Source: an uncultured Nitrospira sp.
GTDB lineage: Bacteria > Nitrospirota > Nitrospiria > SBBL01 > JAADHI01
Direction of reading: 5' to 3'
DNA: 64,000 nucleotides
Assembly (NCBI GenBank): GCA_964451325.1
Contig: CAYVHO010000008.1
Coordinates: 5,537 to 69,536, forward strand
Below the pieces are notes generated by a model. The model saw only the letters and a program-made list of their open reading frames with translations. It searched no databases and was not told where the DNA came from. This document shows positions 50,864 to 64,000 of this stretch, piece by piece (position 1 is the first letter of the stretch; each line of letters starts with the position of its first letter). Position numbers and translations under genes: made by a program.

Positions 50864-51463
50864 ATGTTGAAAAAATTACAGTTCAAACTTGTTGCAGTTT
50901 TATCTTTTACGGTGCTGGCGCTTTCATGGAGTGGTGTTTCCTGGGCTGTCCCAGTGGGCAGTTTCGACGGCACGCGGATTATGGTCATTGATGGTGATGG
51001 TGATGGTGATACCAGTGTGACTTTGCTTAGTGCGAGTTCTTCTCTTACTTTTGGTTATTATCTGAACGGGAGCAGTCTTTTTACCGCTTTTGGTGGTCTT
51101 GATGTTTTCCAGGATAGAGATGTATTGGATTTGGCCCTACAGGATGGTTCAACGATCTACACGGCTTCCGGTGATCTTGCCGATCCAAGCTATAGCCTTT
51201 CCATGGATTTTGCGGGTGATCTGAGCACGAGTACTTACTTTTCACAGGATCCGCTTCCTTCATGGTTGGACACCTATTATTCCAGTCTCACCGTGAATTG
51301 GTCTCTCCCTTCTGGAGATGTAACTTCAATCAATTTTGCATTGAGTGGAAACGGCGACGGCATGGCCCCTGTTCCGGAACCTGCGAGCTTGATTTTGATG
51401 GGTTCTGGTTTGGTCGGTCTCGGGCTTTGGAGAAGGAAAAAGTCAAAGGCTGCGTCAGTGTAA
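50864..51463 (+). CDS. PEP-CTERM sorting-domain protein (putative exosortase substrate)
   Basis: Signal peptide (SWA-VP), a Ser/Asp/Gly-rich body, and a C-terminal VPEPASLILMGSGLVGLGLWRRKKSK. GGAGGG RBS. Confidence 0.85.
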   Translation: MLKKLQFKLVAVLSFTVLALSWSGVSWAVPVGSFDGTRIMVIDGDGDGDTSVTLLSASSSLTFGYYLNGSSLFTAFGGLDVFQDRDVLDLALQDGSTIYTASGDLADPSYSLSMDFAGDLSTSTYFSQDPLPSWLDTYYSSLTVNWSLPSGDVTSINFALSGNGDGMAPVPEPASLILMGSGLVGLGLWRRKKSKAASV

Positions 51464-53083: not shown

Positions 53084-54064
53084 CTACTGAAAGCGGTATT
53101 GCAAGCCCAGTGAAAAGGCATAGGATTCCCAGGTGACACGATTGAGTTGCGTTGTCCCACTCGAGCCATCACTTGCAAAAATACGGTCAATTCCGGTTTT
53201 TGTTTTCCATTCGAGATAATCTCCTTTGAGCGTGATCCTCCAAGCAGGAGAAAGACTTTGTTTCCATCCCAGTGAGGCGAGAATGCCAGAGCCATCGGCA
53301 GAGTGTGTGAAACTGAGTGGCTGTGCTAAATCTGGCCTTAGGTTCCAGTTTGCTGCTGCATTGTAGTTGAGCCAGTGGTACTCGACGGAAGCAAAAAAAG
53401 TGTGTCGAAGGCCAATATTCGCAGAAAAATCCAGCCCAATCCAAGGACCACGCCACTCGGTCTCATAGGTGCTATTTAGGCCAGAAAATGGGCCAAGGGC
53501 TTGGACCTCAGGAAAGAGATCTACTCTGCTTATAGTTTGAAGACCATCTGTCATTTGTAAGTTTTGCTGGTGATATGAGTAGCCCGCCAAGGGAGCAAGA
53601 TGGAAGACCTGTCCCGCTTTGGACATCTTTTTTGTGAATTGCAGGCCTAAGCCAAAAGAGGCATCAAGAACATTGCCCTGATCCGAACGATTGTTTGAGC
53701 GTGAAAATTCATCTTGGCGGTTGTTGATGTTAAAATCAGAATCCTGATTTTTCCCTTCGACGATTTCCCCGTAGGATAGGCTTGCGCGTATGTAGGGTGA
53801 AAACGGGGAGGAAGGGATATCAACAAGGAGTTTTGCATTCCCCTTGACTTGGTTAATCAACAAATTTCCCCAACTGAGTTCTGAAAGGATGTTGACATTA
53901 TTTGCTGAGGGTGCAACGCCAGCGATGCTCCAATTCAATTGGTCAATGCGCCACCCGGTTTCAAGGCCCAGATCCAGTTTTTTTACCGGTTTTGCTAATA
54001 CGGGCGTCGTGAAAAGAAAGCACACGATGCCTAGAGTGAGGGTTGTGCAGCTTAATTTCCTCAT
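53084..54064 (-). CDS. Outer-membrane beta-barrel protein (possibly omptin-like)
   Basis: Signal peptide MRKLSCTT...PVLA-KP from ATG 54064 (AAGGA RBS). Alternating beta-strand pattern and a C-terminal LGLQYRFQ. The omptin resemblance (GYSYHQQN..., WRGPWIGLD) is tentative. Confidence 0.65.
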   Translation of the reverse strand: MRKLSCTTLTLGIVCFLFTTPVLAKPVKKLDLGLETGWRIDQLNWSIAGVAPSANNVNILSELSWGNLLINQVKGNAKLLVDIPSSPFSPYIRASLSYGEIVEGKNQDSDFNINNRQDEFSRSNNRSDQGNVLDASFGLGLQFTKKMSKAGQVFHLAPLAGYSYHQQNLQMTDGLQTISRVDLFPEVQALGPFSGLNSTYETEWRGPWIGLDFSANIGLRHTFFASVEYHWLNYNAAANWNLRPDLAQPLSFTHSADGSGILASLGWKQSLSPAWRITLKGDYLEWKTKTGIDRIFASDGSSGTTQLNRVTWESYAFSLGLQYRFQ

Positions 54065-54098
54065 CTTAAGTCCTTTTCGAGAAAGACCTTTTCTATGG

Positions 54099-55154
54099 TT
54101 ATTGCTCAAATTGGCTGGTGAGTTGGCCGCAAGCGGCCAAAATATCTCTGCCCTTGCTTTTTCGGATGGTTGTTCGAATGTGGTGTTGGTGCAGATGACT
54201 TTGAAACGCGAAAATTTGTGCGTCCGGCGTCGCTTGATAGGGGGAACCAGGGTAGTGATTAAAAGGAATCAGATTGATTTTACAGGGAATGCCCCGAATC
54301 AGATGCGTGAGGCGTTTCGCATCTTCAAGGCTGTCATTGATGCCGTCTAACATGACGTATTCAAACGTGATGGAGCGACGCGGGGGGAGATGGAAGCGGC
54401 GACAGGCGGCAAGCAGTGCCCTTAGAGGATAGAGCCGATTGACCTTCGGCATTAAAAGATCCCGGATTTCATCGGTGGTTGCATTGAGTGAGATGGATAA
54501 ATTGACATCAATCGGTCCGGCTAACAGTTGCTCGATTTGAGGTACCATCCCTGCTGTGGAAACGGTGACCCGGCGGGAGGCGAGGTCGAACCCGGCTTGC
54601 GAGATCATCCAGACCAAGGCTTTTTGCAAAGCCTTTAGATTGGCGACGGGTTCTCCCATGCCCATCAGGACAATGTTGCTGATGCGCTCACCTTCGTGTA
54701 ACAGGGATTGAACGGTCAGGATTTGATTGAGGATTTCGTCTGAGCGTAGATTGCGTTTGAGTCCCATCTGTGCCGTCAAACAAAATGTACAGTCGAGGGT
54801 GCAGCCAACTTGTGAAGAGATACAGAGCGTGCGGCGACTGTCGTCTCGAATTAAAACGGTTTCAATCTGTTTGCCATCAGAAAGGCCAAAAAGGAATTTC
54901 TCAGTGCCATCGACCGATTTTTGGCGACTGAGTATTTCAAGTGGGGCAAGGTGGACGGCTTTGGCCAAAAGCAGGCGGTCCCCCTTGGAAAGGTTGCTCA
55001 TGGCATCAATGTTGGTCGTATAGCGTTTGTAAACCCAGGCCAGGACTTGTGAAATTCGGTAGCGCTTCCAGCCCAGTTTTATCCCAAGGGCTGTCATTTC
55101 TTCGAGACTCAGTGCCAAAAAATGTGGTTTTGTGTGATTCATGGAAACCGACAA
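54099..55154 (-). CDS. rlmN: 23S rRNA/tRNA adenine-C2 methyltransferase RlmN (radical SAM)
   Basis: Radical SAM CxxxCxxC (GCTLDCTFC), MGMGEP and the C-terminal GRDILAACGQL motifs. Confidence 0.9.
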   Translation of the reverse strand: MSVSMNHTKPHFLALSLEEMTALGIKLGWKRYRISQVLAWVYKRYTTNIDAMSNLSKGDRLLLAKAVHLAPLEILSRQKSVDGTEKFLFGLSDGKQIETVLIRDDSRRTLCISSQVGCTLDCTFCLTAQMGLKRNLRSDEILNQILTVQSLLHEGERISNIVLMGMGEPVANLKALQKALVWMISQAGFDLASRRVTVSTAGMVPQIEQLLAGPIDVNLSISLNATTDEIRDLLMPKVNRLYPLRALLAACRRFHLPPRRSITFEYVMLDGINDSLEDAKRLTHLIRGIPCKINLIPFNHYPGSPYQATPDAQIFAFQSHLHQHHIRTTIRKSKGRDILAACGQLTSQFEQ

Positions 55155-55492
55155 GTGACATTGCCGATAATCTGCTTTCCTGCGACAGCACCAAAATCGC
55201 GGCTGTCTGTGCTTTCGTCTACATTGTCACCCCGGAGGAAATAACGATCATCATCCAGAACAGCCGTGATTCGTTTGATCATGGGAAATCCGGGACGCTG
55301 CGGATGCAGGACAAGCACAAGATCACCCGCGTCAGGTCGTTTTTTACGATAAGCTCGGGCATCAACCAAAACTTCATCACCCGCTTTTAAGAGGGGAAAC
55401 ATTGAGGCTCCAGAAATACGCTTGCGTTTCCGGAGCCTCAAGAGCCAAAACAACAGATCACGATGGGTGCTATTTCTTAATGTCTTACTCAT
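55139..55492 (-). CDS. sodX: Nickel-type superoxide dismutase maturation protease (S26 family)
   Basis: 117 aa. Signal-peptidase-like SGASMFPLLKAGDEV and GDNVDESTDSRDFG motifs. Immediately downstream of sodN. Confidence 0.75.
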   Translation of the reverse strand: MSKTLRNSTHRDLLFWLLRLRKRKRISGASMFPLLKAGDEVLVDARAYRKKRPDAGDLVLVLHPQRPGFPMIKRITAVLDDDRYFLRGDNVDESTDSRDFGAVAGKQIIGNVTCRFP

Positions 55493-55519
55493 TCGGAACC
55501 TGTAAAAATTAGAACAGTC

Positions 55520-55975
55520 TTAGCTTACTGTGTAATAAGCGACTTCGCGGTTTTTTGAACCCCAGAACATTCCGTGAATCGTCTCAATAGCTGCCATCAA
55601 TTTTTCTGCACTTTCCAAGCTCACAGACACCTTACAGGCCGAACACAGTTTAGCGGCTTGCCAAAAGGTCTCGTGCAAATTGGGGTTGGCTTCCAAATGA
55701 GGCGGCTTGAAATAATCCGTCCACAAAATAAGCAATTCGGTCTTCGCAACATGGGCCTGCTCTTCTTTAATGGCAATGTAGCGGGAGAGCGTATGTTGGG
55801 AAGCGTCATCCTTGCTGTCTTTCAGTGCGATAATCTTTTTTGTCATTGCAAGCACGGCTTCTGCTGCAATCCGGGCAGAAGCGGGGTCATAGACACCACA
55901 AGGCCCATCGCAGTGCGCATGAACGAGAGGTGCGGGCTTCAATTCTTTTATTTTTTGTGCAATCTGCTTGATCAT
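55520..55975 (-). CDS. sodN: Nickel superoxide dismutase precursor
   Basis: Ni-hook HCDGPCGVYDP preceded by a short propeptide. ATG 55975 is preferred over the TTG at 55999. Confidence 0.9.
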   Translation of the reverse strand: MIKQIAQKIKELKPAPLVHAHCDGPCGVYDPASARIAAEAVLAMTKKIIALKDSKDDASQHTLSRYIAIKEEQAHVAKTELLILWTDYFKPPHLEANPNLHETFWQAAKLCSACKVSVSLESAEKLMAAIETIHGMFWGSKNREVAYYTVS

Positions 55976-56319
55976 TCTATTTATCTTCCTCCATATCAAT
56001 GAATTAAGCCTGAGGGGCTTCCTGACAGAAAAAAAATCCCCGGACAGCCTTCAAGCGTTTCAAAATCGGGTCGGTCGAAACTTGAAGAACAACTTCGCGC
56101 CCACCATAACAGGTTAGGACAGTCCAAAAAAAGAAAAAATATTAAAGAAAGTATTTCTTATTATTGTTCGAGAGGGTTTTTCCGAACCATGATTACGAGG
56201 GGGAAAAGGGAGGAAAGGTGTTACTATTAAGTGCCATAATGTTTAGTTCATTCCGCCTCCTTAATCTGGAGATAGAAAAACAGGATATAGTCTTAAGGCG
56301 CTAGGATGTGTGTGTGTCC

Positions 56320-56348
56320 TTGACAAAACATTCTTAATCGACTAGAAT
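56320..56348 (+). promoter_or_regulatory. Candidate strong sigma70 promoter
   Basis: TTGACA-N17-TAGAAT. A second candidate, TTGACA-N17-TAGGAT, lies at 56424-56452. The leader to the ATG at 56558 is ~200 nt or ~100 nt respectively. Confidence 0.45.
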
Positions 56349-56557: not shown

Positions 56558-57400
56558 ATGTTAAAAAAAGTGCTTTTTTTAACGTTGGTTGTGGGTGCTT
56601 TTACGTTTGTCGCTCAGAAAGAGGCTTCAGCCCAGTGTGTTGGTGGTAATGGTGCTTCTAATATTGTTTGTACAAACGATTCTGCAACCGTCGGCAGTGC
56701 CACCCTTGGATTTGATCCGAGTGGTGCGTTAATGGCCGCGGTTACAAACACAGACCCGAGTGCGGGCCCGTGTTTCACCTGTCCAAATTCAAATGCCGGT
56801 GGCACAACTGCAGGTGCATTGACCAATAGCATGTTCGGAACCATTCGGCTCAATTCTGATGCGGACTTGGGTGATAAGTCTTTTAATGCCTCCGTGCAGG
56901 GTTTGACCATTCCAACAGCCAAATCTTGTACTGCCATAGGGTGTAATGATTCGGGTGCTTTCACCTTTAGTATGCCGCTTCCTACGATGGACAACTTGTC
57001 TGCGGGTACGGCCATTGCCACAAATCCGGATCCAGGCGTTCCTGTGGGGACTGCCGGTGCAAGGGTGACCGTTTCAAATACATTCACTTATAATGCGGAT
57101 GGTTCAAGTTCTTTTGATCAGACCGTTGAGCAGCTGACCTTCACCGAAGGGCTTGCGGGCAATGACTTACAGCATGTGATTATACAAGCTGATTCTGCGA
57201 GTCTTGCAAATCCCAATCCTGCTGGTGGTGGGACTGGTGTGGTGAACTACTCCCAGACCATTACAGAAGGTGCTTTTGTCTTGGGTCCCTTGAACGGGTC
57301 TTTCCTCTACAATGTTGGTGCGGCTTTTAATGTAGCCGGTGGTTTTGGTGCAAATGCCCCAACGGGTCCAGATGGAACAGCGGTTCTTCCAGACAACTAA
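56558..57400 (+). CDS. Secreted Gly/Ala/Thr/Asn-rich protein with three closely spaced Cys pairs, unknown family
   Basis: 280 aa. GGAGG RBS. Signal peptide ending EASA-QC. Cys pairs are CVGGNGASNIVC, CFTC and CTAIGC. A strong terminator follows. Confidence 0.7.
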   Translation: MLKKVLFLTLVVGAFTFVAQKEASAQCVGGNGASNIVCTNDSATVGSATLGFDPSGALMAAVTNTDPSAGPCFTCPNSNAGGTTAGALTNSMFGTIRLNSDADLGDKSFNASVQGLTIPTAKSCTAIGCNDSGAFTFSMPLPTMDNLSAGTAIATNPDPGVPVGTAGARVTVSNTFTYNADGSSSFDQTVEQLTFTEGLAGNDLQHVIIQADSASLANPNPAGGGTGVVNYSQTITEGAFVLGPLNGSFLYNVGAAFNVAGGFGANAPTGPDGTAVLPDN

Positions 57401-57440
57401 TATAAGTCTTTAGTTGTCTCAGCGTTTTGCTGGCCTAAAA

Positions 57441-57471
57441 GGGAGAAGCTTTTCAGCTTCTCCCTTTTTTT
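57441..57471 (+). terminator. Rho-independent terminator/attenuator between the secreted-protein gene and the giant OM-protein gene
   Basis: GGGAGAAGC-TTTTCA-GCTTCTCCC followed by T7. Confidence 0.85.
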
Positions 57472-57538: not shown

Positions 57539-60500
57539 ATGGAGCCTGAATTTATCCCTCCCTTTGGATCCAGAAAAGATCCTACATTTCCTGTAATAGG
57601 ATTTTCGGTTTTTTTGTTTTTTCTTTTAGTCCAATTTTTTTTAGTGTCTCCTTCGTTTGCCCAATCTGCTCAAGACGAAACGGAAAAACAGATTTTTGAA
57701 GAAGGCCGGGGATTCATCGAAAGTGGAAATCTAGATCAGGCCATTGCATCCTTTCAAGATATCTTGCTGATCAATCCGGTGCATACGCCCTCCCATCTTA
57801 ATCTGGGTCTTATTTACGGTCTTAAGGGACAAATCAATACGGCCATTGAATCCCTAAAACAGGCCGTGGAAATCGACTCAAAGCTGCTTGCGGGTTATTT
57901 GTTATTGGGGCAGATGTATATGCGAAAGAAACTGCCCGACGAGGCAAAGATGGCCTATGCACAAGTCATTGAGATACAGCCAGATTATGCAGGGGGTTAT
58001 ACCCTCCTGGCTCAGGTCTATCAACAGGAAGGCGACCTTGTTAAAGCGGTCGAGCTCTATCGTTTGGCTGCGTCCATGAAGGATGATTCTCCAGAAAAGA
58101 AACAAGCTCAATTGGCCCTTGAAAATCTAAAAAAAAGAGCCCGTGTTATTTTTGAGCGAGGCATAAACCTTTTTCGGCAGGGTGAGGTAGAGCATGCTAT
58201 CACGCTCTTTGAAAAAGTACGCATTATTGATCCAGAGTATGTTCAGGTTCTTTTCGAGTTGGGCATCATCTATATGGGCAAGGGGGAGTTGGAGGAGGGT
58301 GTCCTTATTTTGAAACAGGCGATTGAAAAAGATCCGACCTTTCTCCCTGCGTATTTAAATCTAGGGCAAGCTTATGAAAATCAAGGAGAAATTGCAGATG
58401 CCATCCTTCAATATCGTAAGGTTCTCTCCCGTACCCAGACGCCAGAAGTCCAAGAGGCCATACTTGCTCGGAAAAAACTAAGCCAATTGGGAGAAACCCC
58501 TGAAATTGGGAAAATGGTGCAGTCTCTCCTGCAAGAGGGTGCCCGTTTGCTTGCGGCCGAGGACTTAGAGGGGGCAAAGGCTGAATTTCGGGTCGTTTTG
58601 ACTTTTCTCCCTAAACAGGCATTGGTTCATTATCAATTGGCCGAAATTGATGTGCAACAAGGTAAGCCGCTTGAAGCCGAAAAAAAGTTCAAAGCTGCAA
58701 TTGCCATCGAAATCAATCATTTTCCAAGTTATTATGCTTTAGCCGATCTCTATGAAGAACGAGAGGAAATTGGGGCTGCAACTAAAATCTATGAAGACCT
58801 TATTCAGATTAGGCCCACAGATCTTCTTGCAAAGATCCGTTTGGGGATCTTACTTGAGAAAGAAGATGAAATTAAAAAAGCCTTAGCTTTATACCATCAG
58901 GTTATTGATTCCTCCACGCAGGGCAGCAAACCTATTTTGGAATTGGCGCAAACCCGGATTGACCTTTATGAAAAAAAACGGATGCTGAGTTTCTCTAATA
59001 CCGCGATCTCATACGACAGTAATCGTACGCAGAGCGAGGATCCGGAAAGTGAAATGGTTTCTTCTCTGGCGATGGGGGCGACCTATTTTTTTAAAAAACT
59101 TGAGCGTTATCGTATTCCAATGAAGTTTAATTTAAGTACTCGTTTTTTGCATCGCGCCCAGCTTTATTTTTTTAATTCCGGTCTATCTCTTTCTTACGCA
59201 CGTTCATTTTCAAATTATAGTGTTTTGGCCGACTCTAATTTTACGCTGGGCAGCGTGTTTGGCAGTGACGTTGAAAATGGAAAATCTTTTATCAGTCAGG
59301 ATTATACCGGAGAGATTACCCGTCAAGGGACTATTCCAAGTGCCATTACCTTACGTGGAAATTTCAAAGATACCGAAGTTTTTAGTAACCCCATCTTTAG
59401 TTCTAAACGGATGACAGGGACAGGAATTCTTTCCCAAAATCTTTCTATTGGAGAAAGCGACCTGGGAAGTCTACATCTCGGTCTCAGTGTCCTTGATAAT
59501 GCCATTGTGGCGAACGATCAGACACGAAGAGAAACCAAGCTTTCTTTGGATTACAATCGGAATTTTGGCGAAAAATTTACCTTGAGGATGGGTTATTCCC
59601 AGACGGAGCTGGATTTTGTAAACATCGACACCTTGTCTCTAAGCCGAGGGGAGGCCACAAAGCGGCAGAGTACTCGCAGAAGTGCAAGCCTTGGTTTTTC
59701 GTATCGTCTTAAAAAAGGTTTGACCTTTTTTGGAAATTATACGCGAATTGAAAATAAAACAAATCTGCCCATTCCCGCCGATTTGAGCATAGAAGATATC
59801 AATAATAGCCAGATTGGTGCGCTTGGCAATTACGATCAAAACCTCATGAGCTTGGGTTTGAGCGGTAGGGCAGATCTAGAAACATTTTATCCTCAATGGC
59901 ATCGTTTTGGAAAAAAGCTCACCGTGGGACTCACAACGGGCTACTATCATCCTGCACTGACAGAGCTGAATGATATTTTGCGTGATCCCAAAACCGTGAT
60001 TGTGCAAGACCCCAATCACCTGCTGCCTACAAACCCAGGATTTCGCTCCGAAGCCAGAAATATTGCAATGAAAAATATCGGTGGAGGAACCAGTCTTGGG
60101 ATTGAGGCGGAATGGGAAATCAGTGCACATAACGGCCTGGTTTTGAGCGTCTCAGAATGGCGAAACAGCACGGTTCGAACCGATCTGGTGCCTTTATTGC
60201 TCTCCCCCGGAGCGCCCGCAATCATGGTACCAAGGAGTGCACGTTACAACCTCACCATCAATCAGGTCTTTTTGTCCTGGCGTTATTCCCTGATCAACCA
60301 CGCGACAAAGGGACGTCTCTTTTTTGATTTGGGTTTAATCGGTGGTTCATTTACCAATTTAACTGCGGATGCCCTGATTAAGGTTGAAGACAATCCGGTG
60401 GGTGACCCTTTTGCATCCTTAGGGTCATTTGAGGCCCGGGGACGTAGTTTTACAACACGTGTGGGTTTGGGTGCGGCCATTTTTATTCGGCCCTGGTTGT

Positions 60501-62308
60501 CTCTGGGTTTGAGTGCAAATTATGTCTGGGGAACCGTAACCAAACTTAAAATTGCGCGTGACTTTCCTTCCAGTTTTGGTCTGATTGACGAGGGTTTGCC
60601 CGGGGTGGCCAATAGCGACTGCCTTCCACGACTTGGCGATCGCCCAACAGGGGATACCCTGACCACAAGAACGTGTGAGGTGGACCAAATCCCAGACCCG
60701 GACGAGCGACCGAAAATCTTGAAACTGAAATTAAATGGACTTGAAGGCCGCGTTGCTTTGCGCTTTCATTTTGGAAAAGGCAAGCCGGGACGAACGGCAT
60801 TCGAGAAATTTATGAATTGGGGTGATCAGGAAGAAGTCGAAAGTGAATCTGAGAAAGCCGCACCGTCTTGGAAAAGTGCGGGAAGCTGGGGCAGTCGCAA
60901 CGCAAGATTGGGTCTTTCGGCTTTAAGTTTTGACGGAACCCTAAAAAATGAAACGGCTTACCGTATCAATAAACCGCTGACTTTTACCAAGGCGCTTAGT
61001 TTGATGCGTCTCAATACACAGTATGTTTTTTCATCCAAATTTAAGGTGACTGGGCGAGGACGTATTTTTTATGATGCCATTACGGATTTTGTTGATCCCG
61101 ATACGATTAGCCCAAGACGATTTGAAAATACGATTCTGACGCAACTGCCGCGAAGTCCGACGCCCGCGGAAATTGCGGCGGTTGATGTGAATAACTCTCG
61201 GGGTGTTGAAATCAATCAAGACGGTGCCGAGTTGAGAGAGTTTTATTTGGATGCACAATTCAAACACTTCGACCTGCGGATTGGCAGACAAATCGTACGT
61301 TGGGGGGTTGTGCCTGGCGCACGTGTCACGGATGAAATCAATCCCTTTGATTTTGGAGAGTTTATTTTGAGGGAGGTTGAAGATCGCTTTATTCCCTTAA
61401 TGATGGCCAAAATTGACTTTTTCCCCGGAGACGCCCGTTTTGAATTGATTTGGATTACAGAAGCCGTTCCTCATAAGCCGGCTCCTGTCGGCTCGGAGTT
61501 TGAGCAATTTCAAATCTTGGATGGTTTTATTGCGCCGGATGCCTTTTTGGATGCTTCGCTCAATTTTAATGCAGATGCCATCGAGAATACGGAAGTTGCC
61601 GCACGACTGGTTCAAAATTTGAAAGGCTGGGAAATTGGACTGACCGCTTTTTACACCTGGGATGATTTTCCAGCGAGTTTTCGTCGGATTGATGGCGAAC
61701 TTGGTGGGTTTTCGGTCGCACCGGAAGTCACCTTTACTCCGCGTATGAATCGCGTCACAACTCTTGGAACCACGCTTTCAAAAAGTTTTGGGCGAGTCGT
61801 TTTGAATACAGAGTTTGCCTACACCTTTGGAAAACTCTTTGGGACCTTGCTCACCATCGAGTCCGCGGCCACAGCGGCGATCAATGGCACACCCACAGGG
61901 ATTACTCCGCTTCTTGGAGAGTTGGAACGTGACTTTTTGAAATACGCTGCGGGCCTGGATTTTGCTTTTTTGGGGACGGAAATGTCGCTTCAGTTCCTCC
62001 AGCAATATATTCCAAATTGGGATTCTATTATTTTGCAGGACAGAGTCGACACCGTCGTGTCTCATTTTATGAGAAAAACCTTTATGAATGAGCGTTTGGT
62101 GGCAAAAATGTTGACACTTTTTTTTCTGAATGAAGATGACTTATTGCTGAGACCCGCAGTGGAAGCCCGCTTAACCGATAAAGTCAAAACGGTGTTCGGG
62201 TCTGATCTGTTCATTGGAGACCGGGGAGAAGAAGTCGGGCAATTTGATTTTATCGGATTTTTTAAGGACAGTAGCCGTGTTTATTTGGAATTTGTCTACA
62301 GCTTTTAG
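57539..62308 (+). CDS. Giant (~1590 aa) TPR-repeat / beta-barrel-type outer-membrane protein with DUF1302-like C-terminal module
   Basis: Signal peptide ending SFA-QS. About 430 aa of TPR-like repeats (recurring A..Y......P.......LG..Y). Then beta-rich segments. The C-terminal ~460 aa carry GTLKNETAY... and FDLRIGRQIVRWGVVPGARVTDEINPFD, which resemble DUF1302. The protein ends EFVYSF. Confidence 0.85.
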   Translation: MEPEFIPPFGSRKDPTFPVIGFSVFLFFLLVQFFLVSPSFAQSAQDETEKQIFEEGRGFIESGNLDQAIASFQDILLINPVHTPSHLNLGLIYGLKGQINTAIESLKQAVEIDSKLLAGYLLLGQMYMRKKLPDEAKMAYAQVIEIQPDYAGGYTLLAQVYQQEGDLVKAVELYRLAASMKDDSPEKKQAQLALENLKKRARVIFERGINLFRQGEVEHAITLFEKVRIIDPEYVQVLFELGIIYMGKGELEEGVLILKQAIEKDPTFLPAYLNLGQAYENQGEIADAILQYRKVLSRTQTPEVQEAILARKKLSQLGETPEIGKMVQSLLQEGARLLAAEDLEGAKAEFRVVLTFLPKQALVHYQLAEIDVQQGKPLEAEKKFKAAIAIEINHFPSYYALADLYEEREEIGAATKIYEDLIQIRPTDLLAKIRLGILLEKEDEIKKALALYHQVIDSSTQGSKPILELAQTRIDLYEKKRMLSFSNTAISYDSNRTQSEDPESEMVSSLAMGATYFFKKLERYRIPMKFNLSTRFLHRAQLYFFNSGLSLSYARSFSNYSVLADSNFTLGSVFGSDVENGKSFISQDYTGEITRQGTIPSAITLRGNFKDTEVFSNPIFSSKRMTGTGILSQNLSIGESDLGSLHLGLSVLDNAIVANDQTRRETKLSLDYNRNFGEKFTLRMGYSQTELDFVNIDTLSLSRGEATKRQSTRRSASLGFSYRLKKGLTFFGNYTRIENKTNLPIPADLSIEDINNSQIGALGNYDQNLMSLGLSGRADLETFYPQWHRFGKKLTVGLTTGYYHPALTELNDILRDPKTVIVQDPNHLLPTNPGFRSEARNIAMKNIGGGTSLGIEAEWEISAHNGLVLSVSEWRNSTVRTDLVPLLLSPGAPAIMVPRSARYNLTINQVFLSWRYSLINHATKGRLFFDLGLIGGSFTNLTADALIKVEDNPVGDPFASLGSFEARGRSFTTRVGLGAAIFIRPWLSLGLSANYVWGTVTKLKIARDFPSSFGLIDEGLPGVANSDCLPRLGDRPTGDTLTTRTCEVDQIPDPDERPKILKLKLNGLEGRVALRFHFGKGKPGRTAFEKFMNWGDQEEVESESEKAAPSWKSAGSWGSRNARLGLSALSFDGTLKNETAYRINKPLTFTKALSLMRLNTQYVFSSKFKVTGRGRIFYDAITDFVDPDTISPRRFENTILTQLPRSPTPAEIAAVDVNNSRGVEINQDGAELREFYLDAQFKHFDLRIGRQIVRWGVVPGARVTDEINPFDFGEFILREVEDRFIPLMMAKIDFFPGDARFELIWITEAVPHKPAPVGSEFEQFQILDGFIAPDAFLDASLNFNADAIENTEVAARLVQNLKGWEIGLTAFYTWDDFPASFRRIDGELGGFSVAPEVTFTPRMNRVTTLGTTLSKSFGRVVLNTEFAYTFGKLFGTLLTIESAATAAINGTPTGITPLLGELERDFLKYAAGLDFAFLGTEMSLQFLQQYIPNWDSIILQDRVDTVVSHFMRKTFMNERLVAKMLTLFFLNEDDLLLRPAVEARLTDKVKTVFGSDLFIGDRGEEVGQFDFIGFFKDSSRVYLEFVYSF

Positions 62309-62524: not shown

Positions 62525-64000
62525 ATGAAAACAAAGTACTGGATTATTTTTTTTACATGCGGTCTTGCCTTCCTTTTTCATGGCTGTAATTCGGAGCCAT
62601 TTCCCATTGGGGGAAATCAGGACGCCGGGTTTCAAGTCCCCCTTGTCCCGACTTATACCTTTAATTTTAAAACGGGTTCTGGTGCCATTACGGGTGAGCA
62701 GGGAAATCTAAGGATTGTTTCCGGTGCGGATATTAAAAACCTGCTTGCTGCCACGCCGGGAATTAGTGAGCAACGTTCAGATCGCGGCGTGATCAGTGGC
62801 ATTGTTGTGGATGAATTAGGGCGTTCCCTTTCGAGTGTTTCTATTGGGGCCCTGGATAAGGCCGGACGGATTATCCGAAATGTAGATGGCACTGTGAGAG
62901 CCGCAATTACCAATGCCGAAGGAGATGTTGTTGCAGAAGTTCTCTACAATAGCATTAACGGTGTGCCTGAATTTGTGAATACCTCCGGCACCTCTGTTTC
63001 AGGCAGTTTTACCGCACTGAATGTGCCTCCGGGAGTGCATTTTATCAAGGCGGTTCAGGGCGGGCGGGGCAATGCCCGTGTCAATATTTTTGCGGGCAGT
63101 CTGTCGCTCATTGATCTGGCGGTTTTTCCCGTCAGCTTGCCTGCTGTTGATATTACGGGTGTTGTCCGAGGACGAGATGGTTTGACACCTGTGGGTCAAA
63201 CAGACATTCGTTTTGCAGGGGTAGGTGGCCAGTTGACGACGGGCAGCGCAAGCGCATTCAGTCTCTCTGGTTTGAGTGCGGAAAGCACCTTTCTGGTTAA
63301 AACAGGGGCTGCAGGGCATGTGGACACTTATCAGGAAATGTTCACCGATTTGGGCACATTGACTTTGACCTCGGTGACCCCCCAGATCACCAAAAATTTC
63401 ACCACAATTTCGACACCGGATTTTCAGGCGATGGTGGCAGCGACAGGGGCCTCCGTCATTTCAGGCCGAGGGACATTGTTCGGTAAGGCCGTCGCGCTGA
63501 ATGGGAAAAAGCGTGAGGTCACCCTGTCCGTGACAGACAGCGGAGGCAATGCGATTGGGGAGGTTTATTATTTCCCCTCCGGGGGTGATTTGCCTGTTTG
63601 CAATGATGCCAATATTGGAACGTGTTTAACAAAAACATCCGCCGAGGGGCAGTTTCTGATCTTGAATCTCCCTCCGGGCTTGGTGTTTATCAAGGCCTAC
63701 GCAGAAGTCGCCTCCGAAGAGGTCCTTGGAGAGACGATTAAATCGACAGGCACATTCGTGACTTCTGTTTTTTCGGACGGAATTAAGTTAAATGACGTTA
63801 CTTTACGGGTGACACTTCGAGAAGATCCTAACGCCGCGTCTCCCCCAAAGCCTCCCACCTGGTACAGCATGGCGCTTACGGGAACGGTTCGCACAGATGA
63901 TCGCATTACGCCGGTGGAAGGGGTCGATATTTCAATCTTAGGTCAGGCGGGGGTTCTGACGTCTTCAGATGTGACCACGGGTGACTATACGATTGCTGCG
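62525..64000 (+). CDS. Lipoprotein with repeated carboxypeptidase-regulatory-like (Ig/transthyretin-like) modules. 3'-partial, runs off the window
   Basis: Not in the supplied track. My own translation from ATG 62525 (GAGGG RBS) is open for all 492 codons to the window end. N-terminus MKTKYWIIFFTCGLAFLFHGC (lipobox-like). Recurring ISG.VVDE.G, ITGVVRGRDG and LTGTVRTDD starts, plus repeated NxPPGxxFIKA motifs. Confidence 0.75.
   Translation, partial: MKTKYWIIFFTCGLAFLFHGCNSEPFPIGGNQDAGFQVPLVPTYTFNFKTGSGAITGEQGNLRIVSGADIKNLLAATPGISEQRSDRGVISGIVVDELGRSLSSVSIGALDKAGRIIRNVDGTVRAAITNAEGDVVAEVLYNSINGVPEFVNTSGTSVSGSFTALNVPPGVHFIKAVQGGRGNARVNIFAGSLSLIDLAVFPVSLPAVDITGVVRGRDGLTPVGQTDIRFAGVGGQLTTGSASAFSLSGLSAESTFLVKTGAAGHVDTYQEMFTDLGTLTLTSVTPQITKNFTTISTPDFQAMVAATGASVISGRGTLFGKAVALNGKKREVTLSVTDSGGNAIGEVYYFPSGGDLPVCNDANIGTCLTKTSAEGQFLILNLPPGLVFIKAYAEVASEEVLGETIKSTGTFVTSVFSDGIKLNDVTLRVTLREDPNAASPPKPPTWYSMALTGTVRTDDRITPVEGVDISILGQAGVLTSSDVTTGDYTIAA

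Follow-up and report, generated by a model that had tools for sequence, protein, structure and literature searches.

A predicted Nitrospirota outer-membrane protein that joins a tetratricopeptide repeat arm and three different β-barrels, one of the DUF1302 family, in a single chain

Introduction

The DUF1302 proteins are among the largest β-barrel families for which there is neither a solved structure nor an agreed function. Published models describe them as AlgE/Occ-like barrels of 16-18 strands (PMC13499233; 10.64898/2026.03.07.710327), including an 18-strand barrel whose complex with DUF1329 is predicted with high confidence (PMC13499233). The closest described system is AmeABCD, which combines a DUF1302 protein, a DUF1329 protein, a β-propeller protein and an HAE3 pump of the resistance-nodulation-division (RND) type. 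Deletion of these genes in Castellaniella reduced monoterpene tolerance and dye efflux, a result that fits export (PMC6394551). In Shewanella, Kangiella and Pseudomonas the same four genes show cofitness, and a role in exporting a component of the envelope was put forward for them there (10.1101/072470). Here, a giant gene is described in which a DUF1302 barrel is joined to two other barrels and to an arm of tetratricopeptide repeats (TPR). The gene lies near the end of a 64,000-nucleotide stretch of DNA from an uncultured Nitrospira sp. (GCA_964451325.1, contig CAYVHO010000008.1), which is referred to below, at its full length, as the window.

The second point of comparison is the class of predicted multi-barrel outer-membrane proteins (Solan, Pereira, Lupas, Kolodny & Ben-Tal 2021, PMC8346858). 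This class comprises 34 lineage-specific architectures, mostly assembled from units of 8 strands and found for the most part in Proteobacteria and Bacteroidetes; the main text of that paper mentions neither TPR, nor DUF1302, nor Nitrospirae.

Architecture of the giant gene product

The giant gene is one open reading frame on the + strand, from 57536/57539 to 62308, that encodes 1,589 amino acids when counted from the ATG at 57539. Its product is one outer-membrane polypeptide in which a signal peptide is followed by ~430 amino acids of periplasmic TPR arm and then by three successive predicted transmembrane β-barrels. The barrels are called A, B and C in their order along the chain and have ~14, 8 and 16-18 strands, the size of C being taken from the literature. 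The features of the chain are the following:

57539 to 57661, + strand: Sec-type signal peptide, residues 1-41, cleavage site ...VSPSFA/QS
57671 to 58972, + strand: periplasmic TPR array, residues ~45-478, matched by TPR_2 (E=3.5e-39), TPR_1 (1.2e-32), TPR_19 and others
58973 to 59878, + strand: barrel A, residues ~479-780, ~14 strands, supported by a profile and an AlphaFold2 (AF2) model
59879 to 59893, + strand: A-to-B connector; the full spacer from the last A strand to the first B strand is ~12 amino acids, with a conserved DLxxxYPxW
59894 to 60772, + strand: barrel B, residues 786-1078, 8 strands, OmpA/OmpW-like, ending in ...ALRFHF
60773 to 60898, + strand: B-to-C linker, a conserved GxGxxGxTxFE+W and then an acidic stretch of variable length (DQEEVESESEK...)
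60899 to 62305, + strand: barrel C, DUF1302 family, residues ~1121-1589, with the C-terminal β-signal ...EFVYSF

The signal peptide, as read from the translation, is made up of a basic n-region (SRKD), the hydrophobic stretch FPVIGFSVFLFFLLVQFFLV and an A-x-A-like site. An earlier, sequence-only reading of this DNA had rested on a set of motifs (ISYDSNRTQ, ANSDCLPRLGDRPTGDTLTTRTC, DQEEVESESEK, LRIGRQIVRWG...DEINPFD and a terminal YSF), all of which are found in the translation. The TPR array that it had placed at 57.68-58.95 kb was recovered by TPR models that match residues ~45-475 (nt ~57671-58965), and its assignment of the C-terminus to a DUF1302-like barrel was upheld by PF06980, which spans residues 1152-1472 with a score of 44.5 bits against a gathering score of 23.2 (E=1.5e-11).

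The layout is kept in eight independent full-length homologues of 1,511-1,589 amino acids (49-78% identical), all from Nitrospirota and from different metagenome assemblies, and PF06980 is present in all of them. Because these eight proteins share the layout, the fusion is not an assembly artefact. The homologues are named in their sources either 'DUF1302 family protein' or 'hypothetical', and none has been annotated with a defined function.

The region between the TPR array and the DUF1302 barrel had initially been read as a single β-rich module of ~600 amino acids. It is indeed β-rich, but it divides into two autonomous barrels, A at residues ~479-780 and B at residues ~786-1078, each of which has free-standing homologues. 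In Pfam, the single sequence of this region gave sub-threshold Porin_4 matches only, and the PDB yielded no meaningful sequence match either to the whole protein or to profiles built from the middle region and from each of its two barrels. The two barrels were separated by a search of 1.84 billion representative proteins with a profile that covered residues 470-1104. The matches split cleanly into those covering profile positions 1-307, which correspond to barrel A, and those covering positions 323-608, which correspond to barrel B. Just three representative clusters covered both halves, which indicates that the fusion is rare.

The barrel A half of the profile matched the extreme C-termini of more than 100 clusters of proteins of ~880-1,160 amino acids. 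These proteins are rich in TPRs, have no Pfam family over their last ~300 residues and terminate in ...SF, ...NF or ...RF. Their clusters, from Nitrospiria and Desulfobacterales, are named only 'tetratricopeptide repeat protein'. A separate search with the barrel A profile returned two proteins. In the AF2 model, barrel A shows ~14 long strands and its closure is predicted with moderate confidence (predicted local distance difference test, pLDDT, 50-80). The fused forms lose the terminal Phe of the free barrel A proteins; the canonical terminal aromatic signal is kept only by the second and third barrels.

The barrel B half matched whole proteins of ~300-340 amino acids (E=1e-47 to 1e-72), each with a signal peptide of its own and a terminal RFHF or RFYF; free barrel B is 42% identical to the window (tblastn). 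When barrel B was modelled alone (AF2, 19 sequences), its closure was predicted confidently, with 8 long strands, a mean pLDDT of 85.5 and a predicted TM-score (pTM) of 0.84. Comparison of this model with Foldseek returned OmpA-TM, OmpW (TM 0.69), OprG, Ail and OprF-N with a probability of 1.0. The last long loop of the barrel contains a pair of cysteines, C1028 and C1046, which is invariant in the fused family. With one genome scanned per species, barrel B was found in 27 loci, all of them from Nitrospirota (Nitrospiria, Ca. Manganitrophaceae and Leptospirillia).

Barrel C is 45% identical over 470 amino acids (E=4e-124, tblastn) to a free-standing DUF1302 protein of 487 amino acids from another Nitrospirota locus, L007, which itself matches PF06980. 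The terminal ...VYSF is invariant, and the AF2 model of the DUF1302 region is of low confidence, with ~15 or more strands at pLDDT 30-60. The linker that precedes the barrel measures 20-45 amino acids in the homologues and is poorly conserved.

Barrels A, B and DUF1302 each align end to end with free-standing proteins and are separated by linkers, as in multi-barrel proteins. One giant barrel of ~40 strands is less likely, since homologues of every segment exist as separate proteins that carry signal peptides and β-signals of their own. An AF2 model of residues 470-1589 (11 sequences) reached a mean pLDDT of 43, with barrel A alone well behaved, and a Foldseek search with it returned generic large barrels only (TM ~0.14). 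Both the model and the search were discarded except for the strand count of barrel A.

The modules as separate genes of one operon

The loci of free-standing barrel B proteins revealed that TPR-barrel A, barrel B and DUF1302 are encoded by three separate genes of one operon in sister Nitrospirota lineages, which makes the giant gene a Rosetta-stone fusion. On local annotation, the 35 loci surveyed fall into three types, with the following gene order:

Type I: O-methyltransferase, LolA-like, DUF1302, MMPL, barrel B
Type II: O-methyltransferase, LolA-like, MMPL, barrel B, two secreted proteins, TPR-barrel A, DUF1302, lipoprotein
Type III (fused): (LolA-like), 280-aa protein, fused TPR-A-B-DUF1302, lipoprotein

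The most instructive split locus is L007, where the order is O-methyltransferase, LolA-like, MMPL, barrel B, two proteins labelled u231 and u652, TPR-barrel A (999 aa), DUF1302 (487 aa) and FG-GAP lipoprotein; the gene order of L008 resembles it. The TPR-barrel A protein of L007 aligns to nt 57716-59863 of the window (tblastn), that is, to the first part of the giant gene. Barrel B lies directly after MMPL in most of the stand-alone loci (23/26). The MMPL gene is present in type-I and type-II operons and is not found in fused loci. The TPR-barrel A gene is limited to loci that also carry the lipoprotein and the secreted proteins, and all three are missing from type-I loci.

A conserved operon of the order O-methyltransferase (Dimerisation and Methyltransf_2 domains), LolA-like, (DUF1302), MMPL and barrel B is represented by L007 (5418-11320), L011, L013 and L015-L035, and it also exists in complete Ca. 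Manganitrophus genomes (CP114561.1, OY970371.1). Since a methyltransferase gene comes first in this operon, the cargo may be a small molecule or lipid that undergoes tailoring. Two families of secreted proteins (~230 aa and ~470-650 aa), neither with a Pfam match, lie between barrel B and TPR-barrel A in type-II loci (L007 11572-14397; L008 11243-13680; L016, L021 and L030). The 280-aa protein encoded upstream of the fused gene was considered as a homologue of u231/u652; despite the equivalent position, hhalign detected no significant similarity.

Some genomes hold both arrangements. A fused locus and a separate O-methyltransferase-LolA-MMPL-barrel B locus occur in the same metagenome-assembled genome (MAG) in OFTM249 (L002 and L018) and in OFTM244 (L001 and L025, the latter with only MMPL and barrel B genes detected). 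Barrel B and the LolA-like gene are thus each present in such a MAG as a pair of paralogues.

In the split operons of type II, the genes for TPR-barrel A and DUF1302 abut or overlap by a few bases (L016 15819-15822; L021 17260-17263; L008 16509-16515), which suggests translational coupling and an easy route to fusion. In neighbour-joining trees, built without bootstrap support, the fused barrel B domains form one group, as do the fused DUF1302 domains, to which the type-II copies are the sister group. As far as such trees can tell, this suggests that the genes were joined only once, in an ancestor with a type-II-like locus. The result is a small Nitrospiria clade of which ~10 sequences are known. 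A rearrangement must have accompanied the fusion because the order is B...A-C in the split operons and A-B-C in the fused chain. The fusion is best understood as the joining of three operon partners, and not as the addition of a new domain to DUF1302.

Flanking genes and the function of the fused protein

The giant gene is flanked by two genes for exported proteins, and the region between it and the upstream gene contains a hairpin:

56558 to 57400, + strand: upstream secreted protein of 280 amino acids, rich in Gly/Ala/Thr/Asn, with a signal peptide and a CFTC motif
57437 to 57468, + strand: terminator-like hairpin (14-bp stem and T run) that separates the 280-aa gene from the giant gene
62525 to 64000, + strand: downstream lipoprotein, N-terminal 492 amino acids, lipobox LFHG/C, cut by the window end

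Upstream of the 280-aa gene, strong sigma-70-like promoters were located at 56320 and 56424, the promoter-like site at 56320-56348 matching at 11/12 positions. The hairpin may act as an attenuator that yields an excess of the 280-aa protein over the barrel protein. The 280-aa protein has no match in Pfam, and every fused homologue is immediately preceded by one or two copies of an orthologue (41-47% identical). The downstream lipoprotein is 40-44% identical to orthologues of 1,358-1,410 amino acids that follow the fused gene at every fused locus and are also found at every type-II locus. A full-length orthologue contains five FG-GAP repeats and TSP_3 repeats; a weak CarboxypepD_reg match was recorded for the lipoprotein as well.

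With a probability that we put at about 60%, the fused protein forms, in a single chain, the outer-membrane terminus of a DUF1302/DUF1329/RND export pathway resembling Ame, with its three barrels acting as one complex. This reading is proposed because the association of DUF1302 with LolA-like/DUF1329 and MMPL/RND genes, with a propeller protein nearby, mirrors AmeABCD. A gene for a LolA_like/DUF1329 protein lies upstream of the fused gene in the more distant homologue loci L001, L002 and L005; this partner matches LolA_like at 4e-47 and DUF1329 with 50.9 bits, above the cut-off. The pairing of DUF1302 with DUF1329, which the sequence-only reading had named, is documented in the literature (PMC6394551; 10.1101/072470) and at three loci of fused homologues, but it does not extend to the window. 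In the proposed pathway, a proton-driven MMPL pump, encoded elsewhere in the genome, would extract a hydrophobic, possibly O-methylated, lipid-like envelope component, which a LolA-like carrier would ferry across the periplasm. The TPR arm would dock the carrier and the DUF1302 barrel would be the exit duct, with the small barrel B as an accessory or lateral-release unit. The TPR-barrel A unit is confined to loci that also encode the giant lipoprotein and the secreted proteins, and its probable task is therefore to help place these at the surface.

Several points weigh against export by such a pathway. No MMPL, LolA-like or methyltransferase gene was found in the 64-kb window (tblastn), so that coupling to the pump is assumed in trans, and a DUF1329/LolA-like gene is absent beside the closest relative, L003, too. 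The closure of barrel C and the three-barrel arrangement are predicted from homology to free-standing proteins, the model of residues 470-1589 being poor (pLDDT 43). For DUF1302 itself, roles in export, in uptake and as an esterase have all been proposed (10.1101/2020.07.04.188060). The cargo is inferred, the roles given to barrel A, barrel B and the TPR arm derive from co-occurrence, and the Nitrospirota system as a whole is known here from its genes.

The constant presence of the lipoprotein gene after the fused gene, and the restriction of TPR-barrel A to lipoprotein-encoding loci, could also be read in another way. The TPR array and the ~14-strand barrel A would form a translocon like Slam of type 11 secretion systems (T11SS), which would move the giant FG-GAP lipoprotein, and perhaps the 280-aa protein, to the surface, with barrel B and DUF1302 as accessories. 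A TPR region followed by a barrel of ~14 strands is the Slam layout (PMC5449769, PMC8406197), and weak matches to SlipAM/DUF560 were obtained for 3 of 17 distant relatives of barrel A (best E=1.4e-5). Barrel A of the window, in contrast, has no match to SlipAM (DUF560, PF04575) even at E<=10. A match to PF24575 (TPR_Slam) was considered as a lead; it amounts to 40.4 bits when summed over the whole TPR array and to 14.5 bits for the barrel-adjoining stretch (409-473), and it is probably a generic cross-match between TPRs. No Slam-type cargo domain was detected in the lipoprotein, the known T11SS systems are proteobacterial, and both the fusion to DUF1302 and barrel B and the link to an MMPL/LolA-like operon are left unexplained. 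A Slam-like translocon seems rather unlikely on this balance. It is not mutually exclusive with the export pathway, and both readings can hold.

The combination of TPRs with an outer-membrane barrel is also the hallmark of synthase-dependent exopolysaccharide porins, and a porin of the BcsC/PgaA/AlgK-AlgE type would use the TPR array as a scaffold and the AlgE-like DUF1302 barrel to secrete a polymer. In line with this, DUF1302 models are AlgE-like (PMC13499233), the best NCBIfam match of the TPR array is the PEP-CTERM-system protein PrsT (far below the cut-off), 3 of 17 barrel A relatives weakly match EpsL and a PEP-CTERM protein is encoded 6 kb upstream. However, this last gene is separated from the giant gene by unrelated housekeeping genes. 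When the window protein was compared with the BcsC_C, PgaA-type and DUF560 models, as the sequence-only reading had advised, none of these barrels was matched, and no AlgE-type match was obtained either (Pfam, NCBIfam). At the ~35 loci examined, no gene for a glycosyltransferase, a synthase, Wza/Wzc or an exosortase is conserved beside any of them; the conserved neighbours encode instead LolA-like, MMPL, methyltransferase and lipoprotein products. An exopolysaccharide porin is very improbable.

The same barrels could in principle work in the opposite direction, with hydrophobic substrates (fatty esters, hydrocarbons or terpenes) entering through DUF1302 and the OmpW-like barrel and passing to the LolA-like carrier. 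The hosts, Nitrospiria and Manganitrophaceae, are largely chemolithoautotrophs, which counts against such uptake. RND/MMPL pumps are exporters, and the Nitrospirota loci carry an O-methyltransferase, which suggests biosynthetic tailoring, and no catabolic genes. The giant lipoprotein and the secreted proteins would have no obvious role in uptake. What speaks for uptake is the resemblance of barrel B to OmpW and OprG, two channels through which hydrophobic molecules pass. In Pseudomonas, Castellaniella and Thauera, hydrophobic substrates also induce the DUF1302/DUF1329 genes or make them necessary (10.1101/2020.07.04.188060; PMC6394551; 10.1101/072470). Further, in Thalassolituus, the gene for an MMPL-LolA-like fusion and the unannotated porin gene after it are induced on a C28 alkane (PMC6304351). 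Taken together, uptake appears improbable.

The export pathway may also be one part of something larger. Tentatively, the cluster could be an unrecognised envelope machine beyond an Ame variant, in which RND-driven export of a tailored lipid is coupled to the surface assembly of a large Ca-binding adhesin or fibre. Its components would be the LolA-like carrier, MMPL, the O-methyltransferase, barrel B, TPR-barrel A, DUF1302, the secreted proteins and the FG-GAP lipoprotein. If this were true, the fused gene would encode a natural single-chain hetero-tri-barrel, folded by the β-barrel assembly machinery (BAM) as three pores, and DUF1302 would for the first time be physically tied to two unannotated barrel families.

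Other genes in the window

Further upstream, the window encodes on the + strand (50864-51463) a secreted protein of 199 amino acids with a C-terminal PEP-CTERM signal (PF07589, 1.3e-7), which is conserved in L003. Because a PEP-CTERM protein is encoded, an exosortase system is implied somewhere in the genome. An outer-membrane protein of 340 amino acids on the - strand (53084-54109) very strongly matches the Protochlamydia outer membrane protein family (Pom, PF17251; 1.3e-64) and is also conserved in L003. The - strand carries at 55139-55999 a nickel superoxide dismutase (SOD; Sod_Ni, 4e-47) with an adjoining S26-like peptidase, presumed to be its maturation protease. At the syntenic position of L003 (7657-8253), an Fe/Mn-type SOD is found instead, the type of SOD having been swapped at a conserved locus.

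Significance and comparison with known systems

Natural fusion is strong evidence that proteins are linked in function. The giant gene joins DUF1302 to two barrel families and to a TPR arm, which provides a lead on the function of this family. Neither the barrel A nor the barrel B family has a Pfam model or a solved relative (Pfam and PDB searches). The fusion and the split operons together name candidate outer-membrane subunits of an RND/LolA-like pathway in Nitrospirota, a phylum that is important for nitrification and manganese oxidation. Three different barrels in one chain are also a useful test case for the folding of multi-barrel substrates by BAM.

Comparison with the systems of known layout shows the following. 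The porins of the BcsC/PgaA/AlgK-AlgE type have in common with the fused protein a TPR scaffold and an outer-membrane barrel, as well as the AlgE-like fold that published models give to DUF1302. They differ in that the loci related to the window have no polysaccharide synthesis genes and in that there is no sequence match to their barrels. Slam proteins likewise place TPRs at the N-terminus and a barrel after them, which has 14 strands (DUF560) in Slam and ~14 here, and in both cases a lipoprotein gene adjoins. The differences are that the fused protein has no DUF560 match, contains two extra barrels and belongs to another operon family.

With AmeABCD the system has in common the DUF1302 barrel and a partner containing a β-propeller. 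The loci of homologues add a LolA-like/DUF1329 partner, and the split Nitrospirota operons add an MMPL/RND pump. The AmeABCD cluster can also be divided between two genomic sites, as occurs in P. stutzeri. Unlike in AmeABCD, the DUF1302 barrel is fused here to two more barrels and a TPR arm, and the propeller protein is a lipoprotein of ~1,400 amino acids with FG-GAP/TSP3 repeats, whereas that of AmeABCD is a BNR (BNR/Ycf48-like) protein of ~320 amino acids. Barrel B, the TPR-barrel A protein, the secreted proteins and the O-methyltransferase are additions of the Nitrospirota loci. In addition, the window has neither a pump nor a carrier gene, the pump of AmeABCD being of the HAE3 type (COG1033).

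Finally, with the multi-barrel class (PMC8346858) the giant gene product shares several complete barrels joined by linkers in one chain, an 8-stranded barrel among them, and a lineage-specific fusion that is confined to one phylum. It differs from this class in combining three families of three sizes (~14, 8 and ~18 strands) with a long periplasmic TPR arm, and in coming from Nitrospirota. The sequence-only reading had not recognised the architecture as a described one. This holds for the particular combination and not for single chains with several barrels as a class, which had already been predicted. In conclusion, multi-barrel single chains are known, and what is new is the heterologous combination TPR-14-8-18, which includes two unannotated barrel families.

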